Shown here: positions 2-45,575 of the stretch, one piece after another
Layout: each line of letters starts with the position of its first letter
Numbering within the stretch: position 1 is the first letter of the stretch
DNA from: Enterococcus phage 9183
Direction: 5' to 3' (one strand)
Length of the DNA stretch: 64,000 bases
Sequence record: MT939241.1
Translations under genes and position numbers: made by a program
Notes under the pieces: model-generated
What the model was told of the DNA's origin: nothing
The model's input: only the letters and a program-made list of their open reading frames with translations
The model's database searches: none

Positions 2-30
2 ATATTATTATTTATATTATTATTTATATT
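2..30. repeat. 12-bp AT tandem direct repeat (atattattattt x2.4)
   Basis: positions 2-13 and 14-25 are identical, followed by a partial third copy. Confidence 0.8.
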
Positions 31-58
31 GTATCAGTTTCCGTAGGAAACTGATACA
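30..58. repeat. Perfect palindrome: 13-bp arms tgtatcagtttcc / ggaaactgataca with a 3-nt spacer
   Basis: reverse-complement identity read directly from the sequence. Confidence 0.9.
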
Positions 59-61
59 CGC

Positions 62-84
62 GTTAGTTTCCTACGGAAACTAAC
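62..84. repeat. Perfect palindrome: 10-bp arms gttagtttcc / ggaaactaac with spacer tac; shares the agtttcc/ggaaact core with the neighbouring palindrome
   Basis: reverse-complement identity read directly. Confidence 0.9.
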
Positions 85-112
85 AGCGCTATTATAATAT
101 ATTAGTAACACT

Positions 113-1981: not shown

Positions 1982-3919
1982 TTGGAAGTTATGTTCTACT
2001 CACCACGAGAAAGTAAACAATATGCGGCTCACCTATGCTATAAGTTAGGAATTAAGTATACGATAGCAAAAAAGATAGCTGAAAATAGTACGGCAATGCA
2101 ATCATTATTCGATGCTTATCGTACAGGAGACGAAGCTGATTATGATGATGCTTGGAATAATTTGAAAGAGATCGATGGAATTGGCCCTAAACGTTCTACT
2201 CTTTATTTGGAAAAATATTTTGAAGACCCTTATCGTTCGATCAATTGGGAAATGTTCAATATCCTTCAAAAGTATCAACAAGTAACAGGTTGGACAGAAA
2301 ATAGAATGTATGATTTAGCTAGACGAATTGATGATCCTTCTAAAATTTGGTTAGTCTATCTTAACGATGAATCTATTACATTACCAATTGCTATTGAAAT
2401 TTATAAGATGACAACGAAAGATGAGCCTTATCTTCAGTCACAAACGATTCAATACTTTACGCAATACACAGATCTTAAAGCAAGTCAATTCCAACATAAT
2501 AATTTAACTTCACCCAAGTTCTTATTCAACAAAGATTTAAATGAACAATATAAATTATTTATGGAAATTGAAGATGTCGTAATGCTAAGAGAGACTGCGG
2601 AAGATTACGTTGCTATCTTAAAGTTTATGAGAGAAAATAAGAATGAAACTTTAGAACTTAGTCTTAATGATATTGATATTTCAGATTTTGGAGAAGATCA
2701 AGTCGTAGCTTTTGAAAAATTAAAAGATAAACGAGTAATGTTGCTTACAGGTTATGCAGGCACTGGTAAAACTTATATGCTTGATAAATATATATCTGCA
2801 TTGGCAGGACATAGAATTTATGCTTGTGCTTTAGCGGGTAAAGCTGTAAAGAACTTTGTTGATGCAATGTCAGTAGAGAGCATGAGAAAGATTAATCAAT
2901 CGACTATCGCAGGATTGCGTTACGTTCCAACTTATAAAGATTATTTTTCTAAATCGTCAGTCGTTATCGTCGATGAAGCAAGTATGATTTCAATGTCAGA
3001 CTTAGCTTATATTATTCGATTAATGAATGAAGATACGAAATTAATTTTGATCGGAGATATTAATCAATTGCCAGCGATTCAATTGGATGTTCTTAATTGG
3101 CTCGTTAGTGATAATGAATTAGAAAAGGTAACTCTTGATATTCCTAAACGACAAGCTGCAGACTCAGGTATCTTTAAGGATAGTATGTCTATCATTAATA
3201 AAGAGATCCCAGCTTTTGACACTGAAGAAAGTCAAGCTCGTATAGGACAAACATATGTTCAACAGATCATTGCTGAAAATATGGATGCAGATATTTTCTT
3301 GACGACAACGAATCAAGTTAAAGATACGATCAATAACATTAAAGCTGAAGAGGTTCGTCAAATTCCAAATCATGCTGTTTTTCAAAATAAGATTTATAAA
3401 GAGACAGTTGATTTTCATGAAGGCTATCAAATTATGATTGGAAAAAATAATGTTGACACAGGTTTAATGAACGGAGATATTTTCGTTATTAATTACGAAG
3501 GTCATTTAGTAGATCCTTATACTTTAGAAGCTGCAAAAGATTTAGATGGGAAAATCTTAAAGATTGGGGAAAATCGTGATTATCCTGATGCAGGCTTTGG
3601 AGGTAACACAAAAATATTGGATACGACTGCTCATAATGTTCAAATGGCATTTGCTATCACTACCCATAAGAGTCAAGGTAGTACAATGAATAAAGGTGTA
3701 ACTGTTATGGGTCCTGGACCATTAGCAACAAGAAATCTTTTATACACTGCAATCACTCGTTTTAAAGAGAAACATGTTTTATATTTACCTGATCGTGCAT
3801 TGTTGGAACAAATCTTACAAACTGGTGTTCAATATCAAAAATTAAGCAAAGATGAACAAGATATTTTGATCAAGAAAGTTGAACAAGAAAATGAAAAACA
3901 GGAGGAAGAAAATGAATAA
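1982..3919 (+). CDS. RecD2-like ATP-dependent helicase with N-terminal HhH region
   Basis: GYAGTGKT Walker A; VVIVDEASM; LILIGDINQLPAI; THKSQGST; LYTAITRFK. Confidence 0.75.
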   Translation: MEVMFYSPRESKQYAAHLCYKLGIKYTIAKKIAENSTAMQSLFDAYRTGDEADYDDAWNNLKEIDGIGPKRSTLYLEKYFEDPYRSINWEMFNILQKYQQVTGWTENRMYDLARRIDDPSKIWLVYLNDESITLPIAIEIYKMTTKDEPYLQSQTIQYFTQYTDLKASQFQHNNLTSPKFLFNKDLNEQYKLFMEIEDVVMLRETAEDYVAILKFMRENKNETLELSLNDIDISDFGEDQVVAFEKLKDKRVMLLTGYAGTGKTYMLDKYISALAGHRIYACALAGKAVKNFVDAMSVESMRKINQSTIAGLRYVPTYKDYFSKSSVVIVDEASMISMSDLAYIIRLMNEDTKLILIGDINQLPAIQLDVLNWLVSDNELEKVTLDIPKRQAADSGIFKDSMSIINKEIPAFDTEESQARIGQTYVQQIIAENMDADIFLTTTNQVKDTINNIKAEEVRQIPNHAVFQNKIYKETVDFHEGYQIMIGKNNVDTGLMNGDIFVINYEGHLVDPYTLEAAKDLDGKILKIGENRDYPDAGFGGNTKILDTTAHNVQMAFAITTHKSQGSTMNKGVTVMGPGPLATRNLLYTAITRFKEKHVLYLPDRALLEQILQTGVQYQKLSKDEQDILIKKVEQENEKQEEENE

Positions 3920-27207: not shown

Positions 27208-27400
27208 AGAAGTGCTCAAAGTTTATTTACTTTGAGCGCTTTTTATGATAAAATTAATTTATCAAATAAATATAGAAAGGAAATACATTATGAAAGACGA
27301 TAAGTATTTCTTTGAACTTCTTCGTAATATAGAACTTGAAGAAATTAAGTCCATTATCGAAAATAATGGAAAAATAATTGGTAAAAGCTTATAAAAATTG

Positions 27401-35380: not shown

Positions 35381-35391
35381 GATTTTTAATG

Positions 35392-35420
35392 AAGGTTCGT
35401 TTACATAGCGAACCTTTTTT
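35392..35420 (+). terminator. Intrinsic terminator (aaggttcg/cgaacctt plus T6) whose 9-nt loop is the -35 TTTACA of the next promoter
   Basis: read directly. Confidence 0.7.
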
Positions 35421-38400: not shown

Positions 38401-39314
38401 GAGAATTAATGATTAAGTTTGTTGAATACGTTGAACCTCTTAAAGAAAAATTGACGACCGCGGTTATTCCAAAAATAATTGATCGCGTGCCTGAAACTTA
38501 TAAAGAAGGCGTAACTGCTTACATGTTTCTTAAGGAAGTAAAAGGTAAGAAAAATCATACACAATATTCGGATCATTTCTTTGATAATTATGAAAAATTA
38601 TGTAAAGAAAAAGTAACGAAAAAATATCCAAATTCATATTATTATGATGATAATGGTGAATTAGTAATTGAAGTAAAAGTACTTGAAAAAGTAGTAAAAG
38701 ATAAGATGGAACCAATTAAAGAATGGCTTAAGACTGAAGAGGCTTTACGTGCTGAAGCTGCATTAAGACGAACAGCGTTTTGGAATAAGTATTGTCAAGG
38801 AACGATTTCTCATTGGGAAATGGAATCAATTACGTTCTACATTTCAAATCACGAACTTAATGAATATCCACTTGATTCATACTTTAACATTGCGTCATTT
38901 AAAGATATGCCAAGAGAACCTGAAATTATTGGTTGGTCAAATGGGAGAGGAAGAAAATGGCCTCAATTAAAAACGGAGGTCATTGCGGGAACCGTCATTG
39001 ATACTTTACCTAAGAAGGGTATCGTCACAATTATTACACAAACTGGAGTCGTCGATGTTCGTGTAGGAAAAGGAAAGTATCAACATTATAATAAGAAAAT
39101 AATGGTTGGCGAAGGTAAAGAACGAGTAAACATTGATGATACTTGGTGGAAACGTGGAAATATGATTGTCGTCGTTGGTTATCGTCGTGAAAATGATTTT
39201 TATGCTAATGCAAGAAATAGTTCATATCAACATTCAGTGATGCTGATCAAAGGTCACGATGGTAAGAAAGTATTCGTTCAACAGGAAAAGAAAAAAATAG
39301 GAGAAGATTATTAA
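35460..39314 (+). CDS. dnaE: DNA polymerase III alpha subunit (DnaE-type) with N-terminal PHP domain
   Basis: PHP motif SIHNHSYYS...VLSDHETIAG; 1284 aa; polymerase core region conserved. Confidence 0.75.
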   Translation: MSWFSIHNHSYYSNFRLRDATNAPEDIIDKAIELGLTGIVLSDHETIAGAPKFLDYAKKLEKENKLPEGFKVGVGNEAYLIDRKYEQAMIDQEKVKYYHFIMLAKNQRGFEFLKKQTALAWSHRIYSRGMERVPTYKQDLVELMKEYKGDVVASTACIGGELPQLILKLEEATLNGNDNEVKEIKQEIHNFIHFLVNTFGHENVFFELQPSYQEEQKIVNKWLPTIAEAYKIKCIVTTDAHYLTLAQQEFHKQYLQASEGEREVEQFYATTYIFSYDELLEYFDQELLDVLVENTNIIKDMIEEINYKHETVIPNSHIPSFKPNMEIMKKIDEEKYPNIYKMMNSKVLEDRYYHHRVMQGFIDKKQEFNDENLSRIDLEYSELEEISEQLGQPMTSYFLAMTEFVDIMWEHSLVGVGRGSAVCYYTNYLLDIVQLNPIKYDLPYWRFLSREYVGEFPDIDVDAQGSQRASIIEGVKERFGHENVLNIGTYTTEGARAASLTACRALGLDPDTAQNITNMIPSDKGNPWPLHDAFFGNEEENRKPDKAFINEVNNYEGLQELMLQSQGLVSGRGQHASGVVVFPNGYTSMNTMMKTSNGLPITQWDAGTTEAAGGIKYDFLSINALDRIKSAMDMLLKDGKIEWQGSLRDTFNKYFHPDVLEMDADKMYDMLFDGEIISAFQFEAKTGRQALEKINARNFNQLVAANSLMRLSCEGEQPIDKFIRYKNDLSNWDKDMDEYGLTEDEKKVMHELLDARYGVCETQEAIMQIAMHEKVAKYNLREAKGLRKASAKKKPEIQEKQKKLFFEKGTANGTSTNLLNYIWNECYVPTFGYSFSAPHVAAYTMILMIEMNIAYRYGVHYWKAACLNVDAGILDGEVEGGTRYGKIAKALSGFREDVVPPSVNKSDIGFTPDSKTGKIMYGLKPIVGMNGKLARQIIENRPYSNIKDFIEKNLENGDLTKGKMVNLIKSGIFDELYANRRELMIKFVEYVEPLKEKLTTAVIPKIIDRVPETYKEGVTAYMFLKEVKGKKNHTQYSDHFFDNYEKLCKEKVTKKYPNSYYYDDNGELVIEVKVLEKVVKDKMEPIKEWLKTEEALRAEAALRRTAFWNKYCQGTISHWEMESITFYISNHELNEYPLDSYFNIASFKDMPREPEIIGWSNGRGRKWPQLKTEVIAGTVIDTLPKKGIVTIITQTGVVDVRVGKGKYQHYNKKIMVGEGKERVNIDDTWWKRGNMIVVVGYRRENDFYANARNSSYQHSVMLIKGHDGKKVFVQQEKKKIGEDY

Positions 39315-39316
39315 GG

Positions 39317-39342
39317 CTGTGTTTACACAGTCTTTTCTTCTT
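39317..39342 (+). terminator. Hairpin gctgtg-ttta-cacagtc plus T-rich tract, carrying the next -35
   Basis: read directly. Confidence 0.55.
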
Positions 39343-39380: not shown

Positions 39381-39644
39381 ATGAAACAGACAGAAGAAAA
39401 AGCTGAACGCAACAAAGAATTGCTTAGTCATATTTCAGAGGCACAAGCTCAAGTAAATACGCAAATCGAGCGCAAAGAAAATTTAGCCAATCAAGAGGTC
39501 GACATTGAGGCAAAAATTGGTGTACTCCAAAATAAATTACACACAATTAAAATTAAGCAAAAATATAATGAGAAAGATCTTCAAGATGCAACGAGACAAC
39601 TTAATTATATGAAAGAAAAATTCTGGGAGGAAAATTTGGTATGA
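39381..39644 (+). CDS. Small coiled-coil protein
   Basis: ORF with RBS ggagga. Confidence 0.5.
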   Translation: MKQTEEKAERNKELLSHISEAQAQVNTQIERKENLANQEVDIEAKIGVLQNKLHTIKIKQKYNEKDLQDATRQLNYMKEKFWEENLV

Positions 39645-39919
39645 GTATGAAAAATGCATTTATGTTTATGAAATTGGAAAATAAGTTAAAGAAAAGCGAA
39701 ATCTTTATTTTAGGATATATTTTTGGTTCGCGTGACTCAGCTTTGCAGCTTGCACAAAATACTCATAAGCTGACTGACGAACAAATCAATGAATTGGATG
39801 AAGATGTATTTACGCCTGAAGCTCTTGAAGACGCTTGGAATCGTATTGCGGCTGAAATGCAAATCACTGATGCGCGATCATATTTTGATGTAATGGAAAT
39901 TTTAGAAAAAGCGAAATAA
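39641..39919 (+). CDS. Small hypothetical protein
   Basis: ORF. Confidence 0.5.
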   Translation: MSMKNAFMFMKLENKLKKSEIFILGYIFGSRDSALQLAQNTHKLTDEQINELDEDVFTPEALEDAWNRIAAEMQITDARSYFDVMEILEKAK

Positions 39920-39920
39920 A

Positions 39921-39948
39921 TATGGGGATTTTACCCCATATTTTTTTA
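39921..39948 (+). terminator. Intrinsic terminator (tatgggg/ccccata plus T7)
   Basis: read directly. Confidence 0.7.
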
Positions 39949-39990: not shown

Positions 39991-40019
39991 TTTACACATA
40001 CTTTTTCCTATGATATAAT
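39991..40019 (+). promoter_or_regulatory. Consensus phage promoter driving an ORF-less transcript
   Basis: TTTACA, 17-nt spacer, TGATATAAT. Confidence 0.65.
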
Positions 40020-40026
40020 ACTAAAG

Positions 40027-40195
40027 TAGATAAATAGATATACATATTTGTCTGAGGGACTTCGTTAGAAGTTCCGAAGGGCATCAGCTTCGCTGATGTA
40101 TTGCCAAGGTTGTACATATTTTATGTGGTTCCTTACCGAACGAGATAGAACGAAATAGGTAAAAAAAAAAATAGAGGATTTCTCCTCTATTTTAA
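40027..40195 (+). ncRNA. Candidate structured small RNA (~170 nt) between a consensus promoter and a bidirectional terminator; no ORF
   Basis: hairpins GGGACUUC-GUUA-GAAGUUCC (40056-75) and CAUCAGC-UUCG-GCUGAUG (40082-98); terminator at 40161-40200; longest ORF 20 aa with no RBS. Confidence 0.5.
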
Positions 40196-40200
40196 TTTAT
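40161..40200. terminator. Bidirectional terminator: A11, atagagga-tttc-tcctctat, T-run
   Basis: read directly. Confidence 0.7.
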
Positions 40201-40698: not shown

Positions 40699-40739
40699 TG
40701 ACGAAATATGACGAAATTATCACAAAATATGACGAAAAT
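40699..40739. repeat. Three direct repeats A(A)ATATGACGAAA(A/T)T phased at 10 and 21 bp (iteron/operator-like)
   Basis: TGACGAAAT at 40699, 40709 and TGACGAAAA at 40730. Confidence 0.6.
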
Positions 40740-40849: not shown

Positions 40850-41422
40850 ATGATTGAAAACGAAGCTCTAGGAATTGAAAGAACTTTTGTTCTTAGAAAA
40901 GCCTACGAAGAAATTAATCGAGGTGTTGTAGGGGAACCTATCTTAGTAGCATTTAAAGATAATATGACAAAAAAATTTAATAAAGACAATTTATACCTAT
41001 ATGCATATGATGCTTTTGGTTTACCCCACTTAACACCTGGTGATCTTGTGTTAGTTCCTGCTATTAAACATGATAATTATGAGGTAGTTAAAGTAATTGC
41101 TACTTACACTGATATGCTTAATGATGAACGCCTTTTCAACAAAGCGCTTTATTCAATGGAAAAAACAAAAGAAAAAGGTTTGACGGTACGACCTGTTATT
41201 ACTAATATTCAACAATCAATTAGTGATTATCATCGACGTCTTCAAATCACAAAAGAAAAATTGATCAAAATTGAATCATTGAAACGCGAAATTGAAAAAA
41301 CTATCACTTTAGATAAAGTAAAACATTTCGCCAATTACAATCCTAATATAAAAGAAATTATGGATGAATTTAATGAAGATGAATTATTTAATCTTTTAGG
41401 AGGAGACATTGATGTTAAATAA
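40850..41422 (+). CDS. Hypothetical protein
   Basis: ORF with RBS aagagg. Confidence 0.5.
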   Translation: MIENEALGIERTFVLRKAYEEINRGVVGEPILVAFKDNMTKKFNKDNLYLYAYDAFGLPHLTPGDLVLVPAIKHDNYEVVKVIATYTDMLNDERLFNKALYSMEKTKEKGLTVRPVITNIQQSISDYHRRLQITKEKLIKIESLKREIEKTITLDKVKHFANYNPNIKEIMDEFNEDELFNLLGGDIDVK

Positions 41423-41715: not shown

Positions 41716-41743
41716 ATAAAAAGATTTAAGAAGGAGAGATTTG

Positions 41744-41962
41744 ATGAATTTTAGTCAAGCTTTTGATACCGTCAGTCAACGAGAAGGAACGTTTATGCGT
41801 TTGCCTCAATGGAAAGAGGACGTAAAAATTCGTGCTCAATTTCCTGATGAATACAGTAAAATGAGTCATCCTTACCTATATGTGGAATCGCGTTTTGGTA
41901 ATGTACCTTGGATTCCAACACAGGTTGAAATGTTTTCAAATAAATGGGAGGTAGGAATTTAA
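41744..41962 (+). CDS. Small hypothetical protein
   Basis: ORF with RBS aggaga. Confidence 0.45.
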   Translation: MNFSQAFDTVSQREGTFMRLPQWKEDVKIRAQFPDEYSKMSHPYLYVESRFGNVPWIPTQVEMFSNKWEVGI

Positions 41963-43005: not shown

Positions 43006-43594
43006 TATTTGCTTTGTTCTTGCGGGAAAAACACTTTCTGGCAAGACAACTTTACTAAAATATCTTGAAGAGAAAAAAGGTATTAAGCGTTTCATTACGA
43101 CAACGACAAGACCTCCTCGTCCAGGTGAAATAAATGGGGTTGACTATTTCTTCATTAGTGATGAAAAATTTAATTCATTGATGAAAAAAGATTTAATCGT
43201 TGCTCCTAATTTTTACCAACCTGCTGAAGAAACAGGCAGCTCAATTTGGTCTTATGGGCTAGATGCAAATCTTCTTAAAAATAAAGGAAGAACTTTAGTT
43301 GTCACTGAAATCAAAGGAATTATTGACTTGCAAGATTACTTTGGTAAAAAGAACGTATATGCAATTTATCTTGATGTTTCTCGAGAAAAACAGTTAGAAC
43401 GTTCACAATTACGTAATGAAAAATTCACTGAAGAAAAAATGCGTCGTATCTTAGCTGATGATGAAGCATTTGATAATATCTTCCAATACGCTGACCTCGT
43501 ATTGAATGCCGATGATTCAATAGAAGTAAATGCTGAAAGAATCGCTTCTTATATTGAATACGTCGAAAATTATTATAGGAAATTTCGCAACTAA
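42995..43594 (+). CDS. gmk: Guanylate kinase-like nucleoside monophosphate kinase
   Basis: P-loop GKTLSGKTT; TTTRPPRPGEINGVDYFF guanylate-kinase signature. Confidence 0.7.
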   Translation: MKDNICFVLAGKTLSGKTTLLKYLEEKKGIKRFITTTTRPPRPGEINGVDYFFISDEKFNSLMKKDLIVAPNFYQPAEETGSSIWSYGLDANLLKNKGRTLVVTEIKGIIDLQDYFGKKNVYAIYLDVSREKQLERSQLRNEKFTEEKMRRILADDEAFDNIFQYADLVLNADDSIEVNAERIASYIEYVENYYRKFRN

Positions 43595-44585: not shown

Positions 44586-44614
44586 TTTACAAGTCACTCA
44601 TTGATTGATATAAT
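44586..44614 (+). promoter_or_regulatory. Consensus phage promoter driving an ORF-less ~290-nt leader
   Basis: TTTACA, 17-nt spacer, TGATATAAT. Confidence 0.6.
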
Positions 44615-44620
44615 TATTAA

Positions 44621-44908
44621 GTGGTCAAAATTAATAAAGAAATTAAAGATCCTCGGAACTTTATCCTTCCTACTTAAACAACATTTGATCGCTTTCATAC
44701 AATTCATTTAAGGTTTTAAAATCAACCATTTTAAGTATAAACTTTTCAATTAAAAAACATTAATAAAAGAAAATTTTCTATATACATTGTTCTTAATAAG
44801 GTTTATAATTAATATGTTGGTTAAAAACACAACAAAGCATTACATAAAGAATCAGTCTTGAAAACCTAGCTTTTAAAGAAGAAAGCCAGATTCAGGTGGC
44901 TATTTTTT
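44621..44908 (+). ncRNA. AT-rich ~290-nt non-coding transcript/leader ending in an intrinsic terminator (agcca-gattcagg-tggct plus T6), directly upstream of the sigma-factor gene
   Basis: no ORF over 15 aa with an RBS; terminator at 44884..44908. Confidence 0.45.
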
Positions 44909-44945
44909 ATGCACAAAAATACTATATTAAAGGTGGAAAAATAAC

Positions 44946-45575
44946 ATGACAAAAACATTCTTAATGACAACGAAAACAGGTGCAGTGCAAAAAGATTTTA
45001 CATTTGAAGAATTATACACCCAGTTCTTTAAGATGATTCAAAAAGAAACTTGGTCAATGGTTAAAGTTTATGGAAACATTATGAAACGAGAAGAAATAGA
45101 ACAACAATTCACGATTGAACTTTGGAACTCATATGAAAAATATGACATCAGCCACGGAACTTGCATTTCAACTTACATCTATAATCGTTTCCAAAAAGCA
45201 AAAAGAGATCTTCTTTATCCACTTATTGGTTCAAGTAAAAGCAAATGGGAAAAGAAAAACACAACTTCATTATCAGCAAAACATAATGAAGATGATCGTA
45301 ATGATCAGTCTAATAAGATGTTTACAAACGATAAGACATATAACCAAATAGTTAGCGCAGAAAATCTTCTTGTGAGTCAAGATTTAATTGAAGCAATCAT
45401 AAGCGTTTATAATAGAGAAGAAGATCTTGATCTTATTTTAATCTTGATTGATAAGAAGACTTATTCAGTCGCAAATTATGCAGAAAAATGGGGAATTTCA
45501 CGTGTAGCAGCCAATAATAGATTAAGAAAAATTAAGAAAGAATTGGTTAATGTGTTGGAAGATTTCAAGAATTAA
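44946..45575 (+). CDS. Phage sigma-70-family (ECF/SPO1 gp28/gp34-like) sigma factor
   Basis: region 2 block FTIELWNSYEKYD...STYIYNRFQKAKRDLL; region 4 HTH YAEKWGISRVAANNRLRKIKKEL. Confidence 0.6.
   Translation: MTKTFLMTTKTGAVQKDFTFEELYTQFFKMIQKETWSMVKVYGNIMKREEIEQQFTIELWNSYEKYDISHGTCISTYIYNRFQKAKRDLLYPLIGSSKSKWEKKNTTSLSAKHNEDDRNDQSNKMFTNDKTYNQIVSAENLLVSQDLIEAIISVYNREEDLDLILILIDKKTYSVANYAEKWGISRVAANNRLRKIKKELVNVLEDFKN

Follow-up and report, generated by a model that had tools for sequence, protein, structure and literature searches.

A candidate small RNA gene with a conserved two-hairpin core in Enterococcus phage 9183 and its relatives

Short structured noncoding RNAs (ncRNAs) that have their own promoter and intrinsic terminator are known from the early regions of phages, e.g., OOP of lambda, sar of P22, c4 of P1/P7, CI RNA of P4, DicF, AsxR, and AgvB (enterohemorrhagic Escherichia coli prophage). 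To our knowledge, the small RNAs of phages infecting Gram-positive bacteria are almost uncharted. Here we describe a locus of Enterococcus phage 9183 (MT939241.1), analyzed as one stretch of 64,000 nucleotides (the window). At positions 40,027 to 40,195 of this stretch, DNA without a plausible open reading frame (ORF) lies between a phage promoter and a terminator, and an initial annotation proposed that it encodes a phage small RNA (sRNA). The predicted RNA shares its general layout with OOP and the other RNAs listed above but has no sequence or Rfam relationship to them. While RNAs of the OOP, sar, and c4 type have a known antisense or seed-matched target and a single-stranded seed, no target is detectable within the phage for the window RNA. 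What is conserved in it is a module of two hairpins, and its host is Gram-positive.

Three other systems are comparable in layout. The put RNA of HK022 (about 60-70 nt) consists of two adjacent stem-loops placed between a strong early promoter and a terminator. The window RNA also has two adjacent stem-loops just downstream of its promoter, a likeness of layout as generally described and not of compared sequences. It differs from put in existing as one copy per genome instead of one per early operon, and in the window lineage a strong terminator and a convergent gene follow it. In par of pAD1 (Enterococcus faecalis; RNA I/RNA II, a type I toxin-antitoxin system), a small RNA is convergent with its neighbor and shares a bidirectional terminator with it. 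The convergent partner of the window RNA, however, is an acidic protein of 137 aa and no small hydrophobic toxin. Phage VPE25 keeps the RNA without having this protein, and neither direct repeats common to both transcripts nor a plasmid match is found. The pRNA of phi29 is likewise an RNA of a Gram-positive phage (120-174 nt) that has a strong early promoter and acts through its structure. The window RNA has no Rfam match, belongs to an 86-kb phage genome of different layout with genes of long-tailed phages (tape-measure and major tail protein), and is surrounded by genes of replication and nucleotide metabolism and not found at a genome end.

The unit exists at a syntenic site in four lineages: the window with phage Planchet, a metagenomic sister lineage (W2), the group of VPE25, vipetofem, and nattely, and a distant contig (clade X). 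The reading favored here, to which we give a probability of roughly one half, is that the locus is a single-copy gene for a structured ncRNA, which would be an abundant early sRNA acting in trans. We take it to be a new phage small RNA family with no published description, so far confined to Andrewesvirinae phages of Enterococcus (Denvervirus-like and Vipetofemvirus-like). A literature search gave no mention of noncoding RNA in VPE25 or its relatives, and the transcriptome study of VPE25 infection analyzed 132 ORFs only (PMC7064774).

The transcription unit and its predicted fold

The unit, its boundaries, and its structural parts are listed by position and strand.

39918..39943, + strand: upstream intrinsic terminator with a 10-pair stem (4 G-C pairs) and a T run, closing the operon of the PolIII-alpha, 87-aa, and 92-aa genes
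39991..40019, + strand: sigma-A type promoter with extended -10 (TTTACA-N14-TGATATAAT), zero mismatches to the phage consensus, kept in four lineages
40026..40200, + strand: predicted small RNA of about 170-175 nt, its ends placed by the geometry of promoter and terminator
40027..40054, + strand: SL0, AU-rich 5' hairpin of 10 pairs, found in the window and W2 lineages only, stem invariant and loop variable between them
40051..40080, + strand: H1, first core hairpin, with UCU/AGG lower stem, tandem G·A/A·G loop, 8-bp upper stem, and GUUA loop
40081..40099, + strand: H2, second core hairpin, 8 pairs with an invariant UUC triloop (GCAUCAGC-UUC-GCUGAUGU)
40108..40132, + strand: H3, lineage-specific hairpin (40108/9 with 40131/2, 40113-17 with 40123-27), absent from the VPE25 group and clade X
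40133..40167, + strand: A-rich tail, predicted to be single-stranded, with a tandem 10-nt repeat followed by an A run
40168..40193, both strands: bidirectional intrinsic terminator of 11 pairs, shared with the convergent acidic gene

The promoter is, as initially annotated, a perfect copy of the phage promoter. The consensus motif occurs 25 times in the window at two mismatches or fewer (3.3 expected), and 12 of the copies, including that of the RNA, are perfect. An ORF preceded by a Shine-Dalgarno (SD) sequence is found 26-65 nt downstream of all but two of 24 promoters, when the two-mismatch match at 27226, whose ORF is reached only through a second promoter (27401), is set aside. The two exceptions are the RNA promoter and a promoter at 44586. 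From the RNA promoter, the next SD-preceded ORF is 831 nt away, and the convergent gene exists in between. The start of the RNA is placed 6-7 nt past the -10 element and its 3' end in the U tract that follows the terminator stem. The latter terminator had been predicted to be bidirectional and does score on both strands. With the terminators at 39918-39943 and 40168-40193, the unit is insulated on both sides. A promoter of its own and separation from the upstream operon, both expected of an sRNA gene, are found in the same layout in all lineages.

No conserved ORF with a ribosome-binding site is found on either strand in the lineages compared, and a small protein gene was thus rejected. The longest plus-strand ORF within the unit encodes 20 aa (40096-40158), as was initially reported, without an SD sequence and with a stop codon inside it in Planchet. 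On the minus strand, a 41-aa ORF (40117-39992) and its 46-aa VPE25 counterpart do not read the conserved motif in the same frame (compared by hand), implying that no minus-strand protein is conserved. The substitutions that preserve pairing in H2 yield unrelated peptides. Hypothetical coding sequences are annotated over the RNA in vipetofem (gp072, NC_055834.1 43613-43768, 51 aa) and vB_EfKM29 (PQ389505.1 70903-71070, 55 aa). They lack an SD sequence, extend across the promoter that follows, and are without equivalent in the window lineage, and nattely lacks the first ATG. On these sequence comparisons, both are probably mis-annotations.

The RNA including the terminator has a minimum free energy of -56.3 kcal/mol (z -6.5); z is -4.8 without the terminator and -4.2 for the 49-nt core of H1 and H2. 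Only one of 1682 plus-strand windows of the same length (114 nt) in the 64 kb folds as well as the RNA region. The core has 51% G+C while the genome has about 31%, and the initial remark that structured GC-rich segments stand out here was justified. Folding of the 3' domain alone shows no significant structure (z -1.5). For the window and W2 lineages, RNAalifold gives five hairpins (SL0, H1, H2, H3, and the terminator), and no counterpart of SL0 is predicted in the VPE25 group or clade X.

The upper hairpin of H1 (GGGACUUC-GUUA-GAAGUUCC, 40056-40075) was given correctly in the initial annotation. Below it, 40054-55 and 40076-77 form the internal loop, and the lower stem appears when the RNA is folded without SL0. 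Since the 3' arm of SL0 (40051-40054) overlaps this lower stem, the two are mutually exclusive. The apical CUUC/GAAG is invariant in all lineages. The lower stem is UCU/AGA in W2 and UCG/CGA with a single G·A mismatch in the VPE25 group. Clade X has UUCU/AGAA, then GA/GA, and then a 6-bp apex, the same design as in the window. An alternative CUUCG/CGAAG pairing was initially suggested as a possible switch. A better explanation of the second GAAG is that it forms the 3' strand of the H1 lower stem (UCU/AGG), which recurs in three lineages, and the alternative pairing has only 4 bp in the VPE25 group. The second hairpin had been drawn as CAUCAGC-UUCG-GCUGAUG. It is present, but this drawing is wrong by one base because one G was counted twice, and the true loop is the UUC triloop. 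H1 and H2 are separated by 0-1 nt, and the module begins 25-40 nt after the predicted start. In the tail, which is well kept in the window and W2, the repeats are AACGAGAUAG (40139-48) and AACGAAAUAG (40149-58). One related AGCGAAAAUUA exists in the VPE25 group.

Conservation and covariation in four lineages

The order of genes at the syntenic site is PolIII-alpha, a small ORF, the 92-aa gene, and then the RNA unit. The window is 95.7% identical to Planchet (OX422066; Andrewesvirinae, Denvervirus) across 10 kb around the locus. W2 (L325-L330) and clade X (L332) are metagenome assemblies, found by searching a large protein collection with the 92-aa protein and its VPE25 homologue. The 92-aa protein of W2 is 89% identical to that of the window, and that of clade X is 58% identical to that of VPE25. 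The unit is found in nattely, vB_EfaS_140, VPE25, VFW, vipetofem, and vB_EfKM29 (PolIII-alpha 77% identical). In this group, the 92-aa homologue is followed by a terminator, a consensus promoter, about 125 nt without an ORF, a weak hairpin with a U run, and the next promoter. Flanking proteins are only 24-35% identical between the window and VPE25 (35% for the 92-aa protein) and 58% between VPE25 and clade X. An equivalent of the upstream terminator exists at the same site in the VPE25 group and clade X. The downstream terminator is strong in the window and W2, while its stem has 7 pairs with 2 G-C in the VPE25 group and only A-U pairs in clade X.

Conservation in related phages and an Rfam covariance match had been named as the evidence to look for. 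The former is found, and the latter is not: Rfam 15 at gathering thresholds gives no match anywhere in the window. The best hit of a local E-value scan, sraA, has 31 bits compared with a gathering threshold of 56 and is driven by the terminator hairpin. By blastn against phages, the window copy of the RNA matches only Planchet and the VPE25 copy only the vipetofem group; against plasmids there are only chance matches. The VPE25 group nevertheless holds the 17-base motif ACUUC-N3-GAAGUU-N3-CGAAGG, like the window. A scan of 2.9 million IMG/VR contigs with the core motif as ACTTC-N3-4-GAAGTT-N1-3-CGAAGG gave 45 matches, and only 3 of them are in AT-rich intergenic DNA; these are from the present phages, at the RNA site. 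Motif scans of genomes and metagenomes gave no genuine member among the matches listed, at least 240 in number, several of which are groEL coding sequence. The element is absent, by regular expression and covariance model, from relatives with 30-55% PolIII-alpha identity, from Geobacillus GR1, and from a Leuconostoc phage.

Between the window and W2, four pairs change in a compensatory way: G56-C75 to A-U, G81·U99 to A-U/U-A, and two pairs at the base of H3 from GG/CC to AA/UU. In Planchet, a U·G pair of H3 is changed to U-A, and in clade X an A-U pair of H1 is changed to U-A. For all four lineages, the alignment was anchored on the hairpin apices by N padding, since MAFFT shifts H2 by one column. 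In this alignment, 85% of the cells form standard pairs, while sliding the partner by 1-3 columns gives 27-47%. Twelve pairs are altered on both sides across the four lineages. Seven of the nine pairs of H2 are among them, and 94.7% of the cells of H2 are paired. G·U pairs (40058/40073 and 40081/40099) exist only on the plus strand, which fits an RNA of this strand. Structure is thus preserved by compensatory change, as expected of an sRNA gene, in four lineages aligned by hand. Judged by this covariation, H1-H2 is certainly a selected RNA structure. The compensation persists where a strong terminator and a convergent gene separate the RNA from downstream genes, indicating that the RNA itself would be the product.

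With a covariance model of the four lineages, the members score 53-60 bits, and in the 405 kb searched no other sequence exceeds 12.3 bits. As the entire window and the entire VPE25 genome were included in this search, the RNA has one copy per genome. Synteny in four lineages, 12 compensatory pairs, the lack of a conserved ORF, and the single copy all support the initial proposal of an ORF-less small RNA running from promoter to terminator, at the level of a sequence-based prediction.

Neighboring genes and other ORF-less units

The layout of the genome is the same as in VPE25: a long plus-strand block of early and replication genes followed by minus-strand structural genes. VPE25 is used as a lytic model (PMC7064774); it carries an annotated gene of the integrase family. 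GC skew tracks the direction of transcription, with no inflection at the RNA locus, and a replication origin at this place was rejected for lack of such a signal. ARAGORN finds 0 tRNA or tmRNA genes in the window.

The gene convergent with the RNA (40610-40197, - strand) is the lone antisense gene. It encodes an acidic protein of 137 aa with 31 D+E against 18 K+R (net charge about -13), the sole family match of which is a weak N-terminal one to a PHROG without assigned function. Both this gene and the strong terminator are confined to Denvervirus-like lineages, and by comparison of the sequences, the gene with its terminator is an insertion specific to these lineages. The acidic gene and the gene at 40850 have divergent promoters, and the DNA between these promoters holds three copies of TGACGAAA(A)T (40699-40737) with spacings of 10-21 nt. 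The relatives in W2 have two TGACGAAA copies, 11 nt apart, and none is found beside the RNA copy of VPE25. The tandem pair in the 3' tail of the RNA (AACGARATAG) is related to these iterons. The initial annotation linked the RNA with the acidic gene and the iterons. The iterons are real, but neither they nor the acidic gene is found at the VPE25 locus, where the RNA is kept.

A 73-aa protein similar to Tad2 (Thoeris anti-defence 2; PF11195, E 1.5e-9) is encoded at 41741-41962, 1.6 kb downstream of the RNA, and its VPE25 homologue is 52% identical. The surroundings had been suggested to be a regulatory or anti-defence island. This conserved gene is the only, weak hint of the latter.

The 92-aa protein (gene at 39641-39919) is a member of a small family that has two paralogues in VPE25 (41115-41384 and 43045-43323). 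It shows a sub-threshold likeness to PF08463, the C-terminal domain of the EcoEI restriction subunit (E 0.0036). Among the phages examined, this family and the RNA co-occur in the same lineages.

The loop of the RNA terminator (40179-40182) is found in both orientations among close relatives (TTTC or GAAA; L325, L328-L330) with the stem unchanged, as if the tip had been inverted. In other terminator hairpins (39313-39334 and 35391-35417 in the window, and 3265-3290 of the VPE25 contig L322), the loop or 3' arm holds the -35 TTTACA of the next promoter. Such a compact terminator-promoter junction is recurrent in this phage family.

Another ORF-less unit begins at the perfect promoter 44586-44614. 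About 285 nt without an SD-preceded ORF are followed by a terminator-like hairpin (44884-44901) with a T run. This unit (44586-44945; minimum free energy z -2.8) precedes a gene for a sigma-factor-like protein (44946-45575; 53% identity to a VPE25 protein) and is 99% conserved in Planchet, where it is not annotated. VPE25 has no such leader before its sigma gene, but close by there is another ORF-less promoter unit, which is different and about 95 nt long (L322 3279-3405; about 46,780). A 9-nt match between the RNA and the ORF-less leader at 44650 was rejected, since such a match is expected by chance and an equivalent leader is missing in VPE25.

At the start of the window (30-85), two adjoining near-perfect hairpins of related sequence are found, GTATCAGTTTCC-GTA-GGAAACTGATAC and GTTAGTTTCC-TAC-GGAAACTAAC. 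Their surroundings are AT-rich, the first promoter follows downstream, and they belong to the most stable 114-nt plus-strand window (-38.2 kcal/mol, 27% G+C).

Possible modes of action

The favored sRNA reading can be put in four steps. Host RNA polymerase with sigma-A would initiate at about 40026, judging from the perfect consensus promoter. The same strong promoter drives early and middle genes of the plus strand, so the RNA should be early and abundant. The transcript would then fold into the abutting H1-H2 core, which the covariation supports, flanked in this phage by SL0, H3, and the A-rich tail. Transcription would end at the bidirectional terminator and free a discrete RNA of about 170 nt. 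In the last and least secure step, the RNA may act in trans, its partner being of host or phage origin. The sequence of H1 is kept, while only the shape of H2 is, and no conserved complementarity to phage mRNA is found. Together, these results favor recognition of the H1-H2 module by a protein, or else short pairing with host RNA, over antisense control of a phage gene. A double-stranded H1 sequence with G·A mismatches next to an H2 with a fixed triloop suggests shape recognition by a protein or polymerase, or else very short pairing.

Several short elements that might have served as pairing or binding sites are not conserved. The candidate seed CGAAGG reads UGAAGA in W2. A UCCUU loop, which could act as an anti-SD sequence, is missing in W2 and clade X. 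Promoter-proximal hairpins and the pyrimidine-rich CCUUAC (partly in H3; CUCUUAC in one relative) recall nut of lambda (boxA and boxB). However, W2 has UUAUAC and clade X has CCAUAAGG in place of CCUUAC, the loops are not GNRA-like pentaloops, and no N-like protein is identified. As the boxA-like motif is not conserved, it was rejected as a seed and the likeness to nut was dropped.

Several results weigh against the favored sRNA reading. There are only four effective independent lineages, and the alignment across them was made by hand on the hairpin apices, which favors the proposed structure. When a covariance model was made from the VPE25 group alone, it missed the copy in the window, also with filters disabled. 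In the VPE25 group and clade X, the hairpins that close the unit are weak and AT-rich, with the next promoter immediately behind them, so that a discrete 3' end is not assured in these lineages and read-through into downstream genes is plausible. Duplex energies of three RNA segments with all SD-preceded start regions of the window and of VPE25, compared between orthologues, give no target shared by the two. Exact complementarity to the window is at the level of chance (5 11-mers, 4 expected), and the excess of complementary k-mers in VPE25 consists of low-complexity A/T-rich k-mers.

The main rival reading, unlikely although well worth considering, is that H1-H2 is instead a cis-acting leader. 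The hairpins would then act on their own polymerase or transcript, by processive antitermination of the put type or by stabilizing the 5' end. This implies read-through of the terminator to downstream genes, which in the window lineage means antisense transcription across the acidic gene. The two stem-loops do follow a strong promoter by tens of nucleotides and precede a terminator. In the VPE25 group and clade X, the weak terminator is followed at once by the next promoter and co-oriented genes, which may be the ancestral arrangement, as the acidic gene and strong terminator are specific to Denvervirus-like lineages. However, nearly every gene cluster has its own consensus promoter, leaving antitermination without an obvious need. 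Compensatory change is found in the window and W2 although an 11-pair terminator and a convergent gene follow, and the single copy contrasts with put and nut sites, of which there is one per early operon. No terminator/antiterminator alternative is conserved. The sole candidate, a 5-bp UUGCA/UGCAA pairing in VPE25, is missing in clade X. For this reason, and because the next gene in the window is convergent, a riboswitch or attenuator leader was also rejected.

More tentatively still, H1-H2 might be a new device of Gram-positive phages for binding a protein or acting on the polymerase from the nascent RNA, either by put-like reprogramming of the polymerase or as a decoy for a host protein. This proposal is based on the Tad2-like neighbor, on a double-stranded sequence that is conserved together with its G·A mismatches, and on the finding of no base-pairing target in the phage.

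The decoy form taken alone, i.e., an abundant early RNA mimic that titrates a host protein of immunity or RNA processing, appears improbable. A double-stranded sequence kept with G·A mismatches is a typical sign of protein recognition, no phage target pairs with the RNA, and the neighborhood offers the Tad2-like gene (also in VPE25) and, in the window lineage, a small acidic protein. The partner is wholly hypothetical, however, and closeness to one anti-defence gene within a long early region is weak evidence. The RNA resembles no Rfam family and matches no plasmid. Long tandem repeats of the ToxI type are also missing. A type III antitoxin or pseudo-ToxI was rejected in particular, since no array of repeats of about 34-45 nt exists and the only tandem repeat is the 10-nt pair at 40139-40158.

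It is very doubtful that the palindromes act as DNA, either as operators or as single-strand hairpins of an origin, with the RNA being incidental. ACTTC-N-GAAGT is a DNA palindrome, the locus directly follows the PolIII-alpha gene, the three TGACGAAA repeats of the window lineage are about 500 bp away, and related repeats are found in the RNA tail. On the other hand, the spacing of the H1 half-sites varies (3 or 4 nt) and the sequence of H2 is wholly replaced while its pairing is kept, implying a folded single strand and not a protein-bound duplex. The G·U pairs restricted to the plus strand, the GC skew without an inflection, and the absence of iterons beside the VPE25 copy argue in the same direction.

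That the locus is a relic, i.e., an orphan promoter left after gene loss in front of sequence that folds by chance, is scarcely credible: the 3' end of the RNA (AACGAAATAGGTA, 40149-61) resembles the leader and ribosome-binding site AACGAAAGAGGTA of the gene at 40850, and other ORF-less promoter units exist (44586 in the window and about 46,780 in VPE25), but in neutral DNA, the 17-nt motif and the two hairpins, with their 12 compensated pairs, would be lost as flanking proteins fall to 24-58% identity, and the unconserved flanks of the core argue against recent recombination at the locus.

Under the favored reading as an sRNA gene, the annotation of two deposited genomes, which call a hypothetical protein across the locus, would be corrected. 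Public RNA-seq data exist for E. faecalis OG1RF infected by VPE25 at 0, 10, 20, and 40 min (mBio 2020, PMC7064774), so expression can be checked without new laboratory work. Laboratory culture of these phages is possible, and they can probably be engineered, making a deletion test feasible. VPE25 and its relatives are the main models of Enterococcus-phage interaction and are candidates for therapy. If the put-like form of the device were true, antisense transcription across the acidic gene may serve as a timing switch in the window lineage; if the decoy form were true, an abundant RNA would neutralize a host protein of immunity or RNA processing. The RNA has outlasted a divergence that erased most of the similarity of the flanking proteins, and it therefore probably matters for infection.

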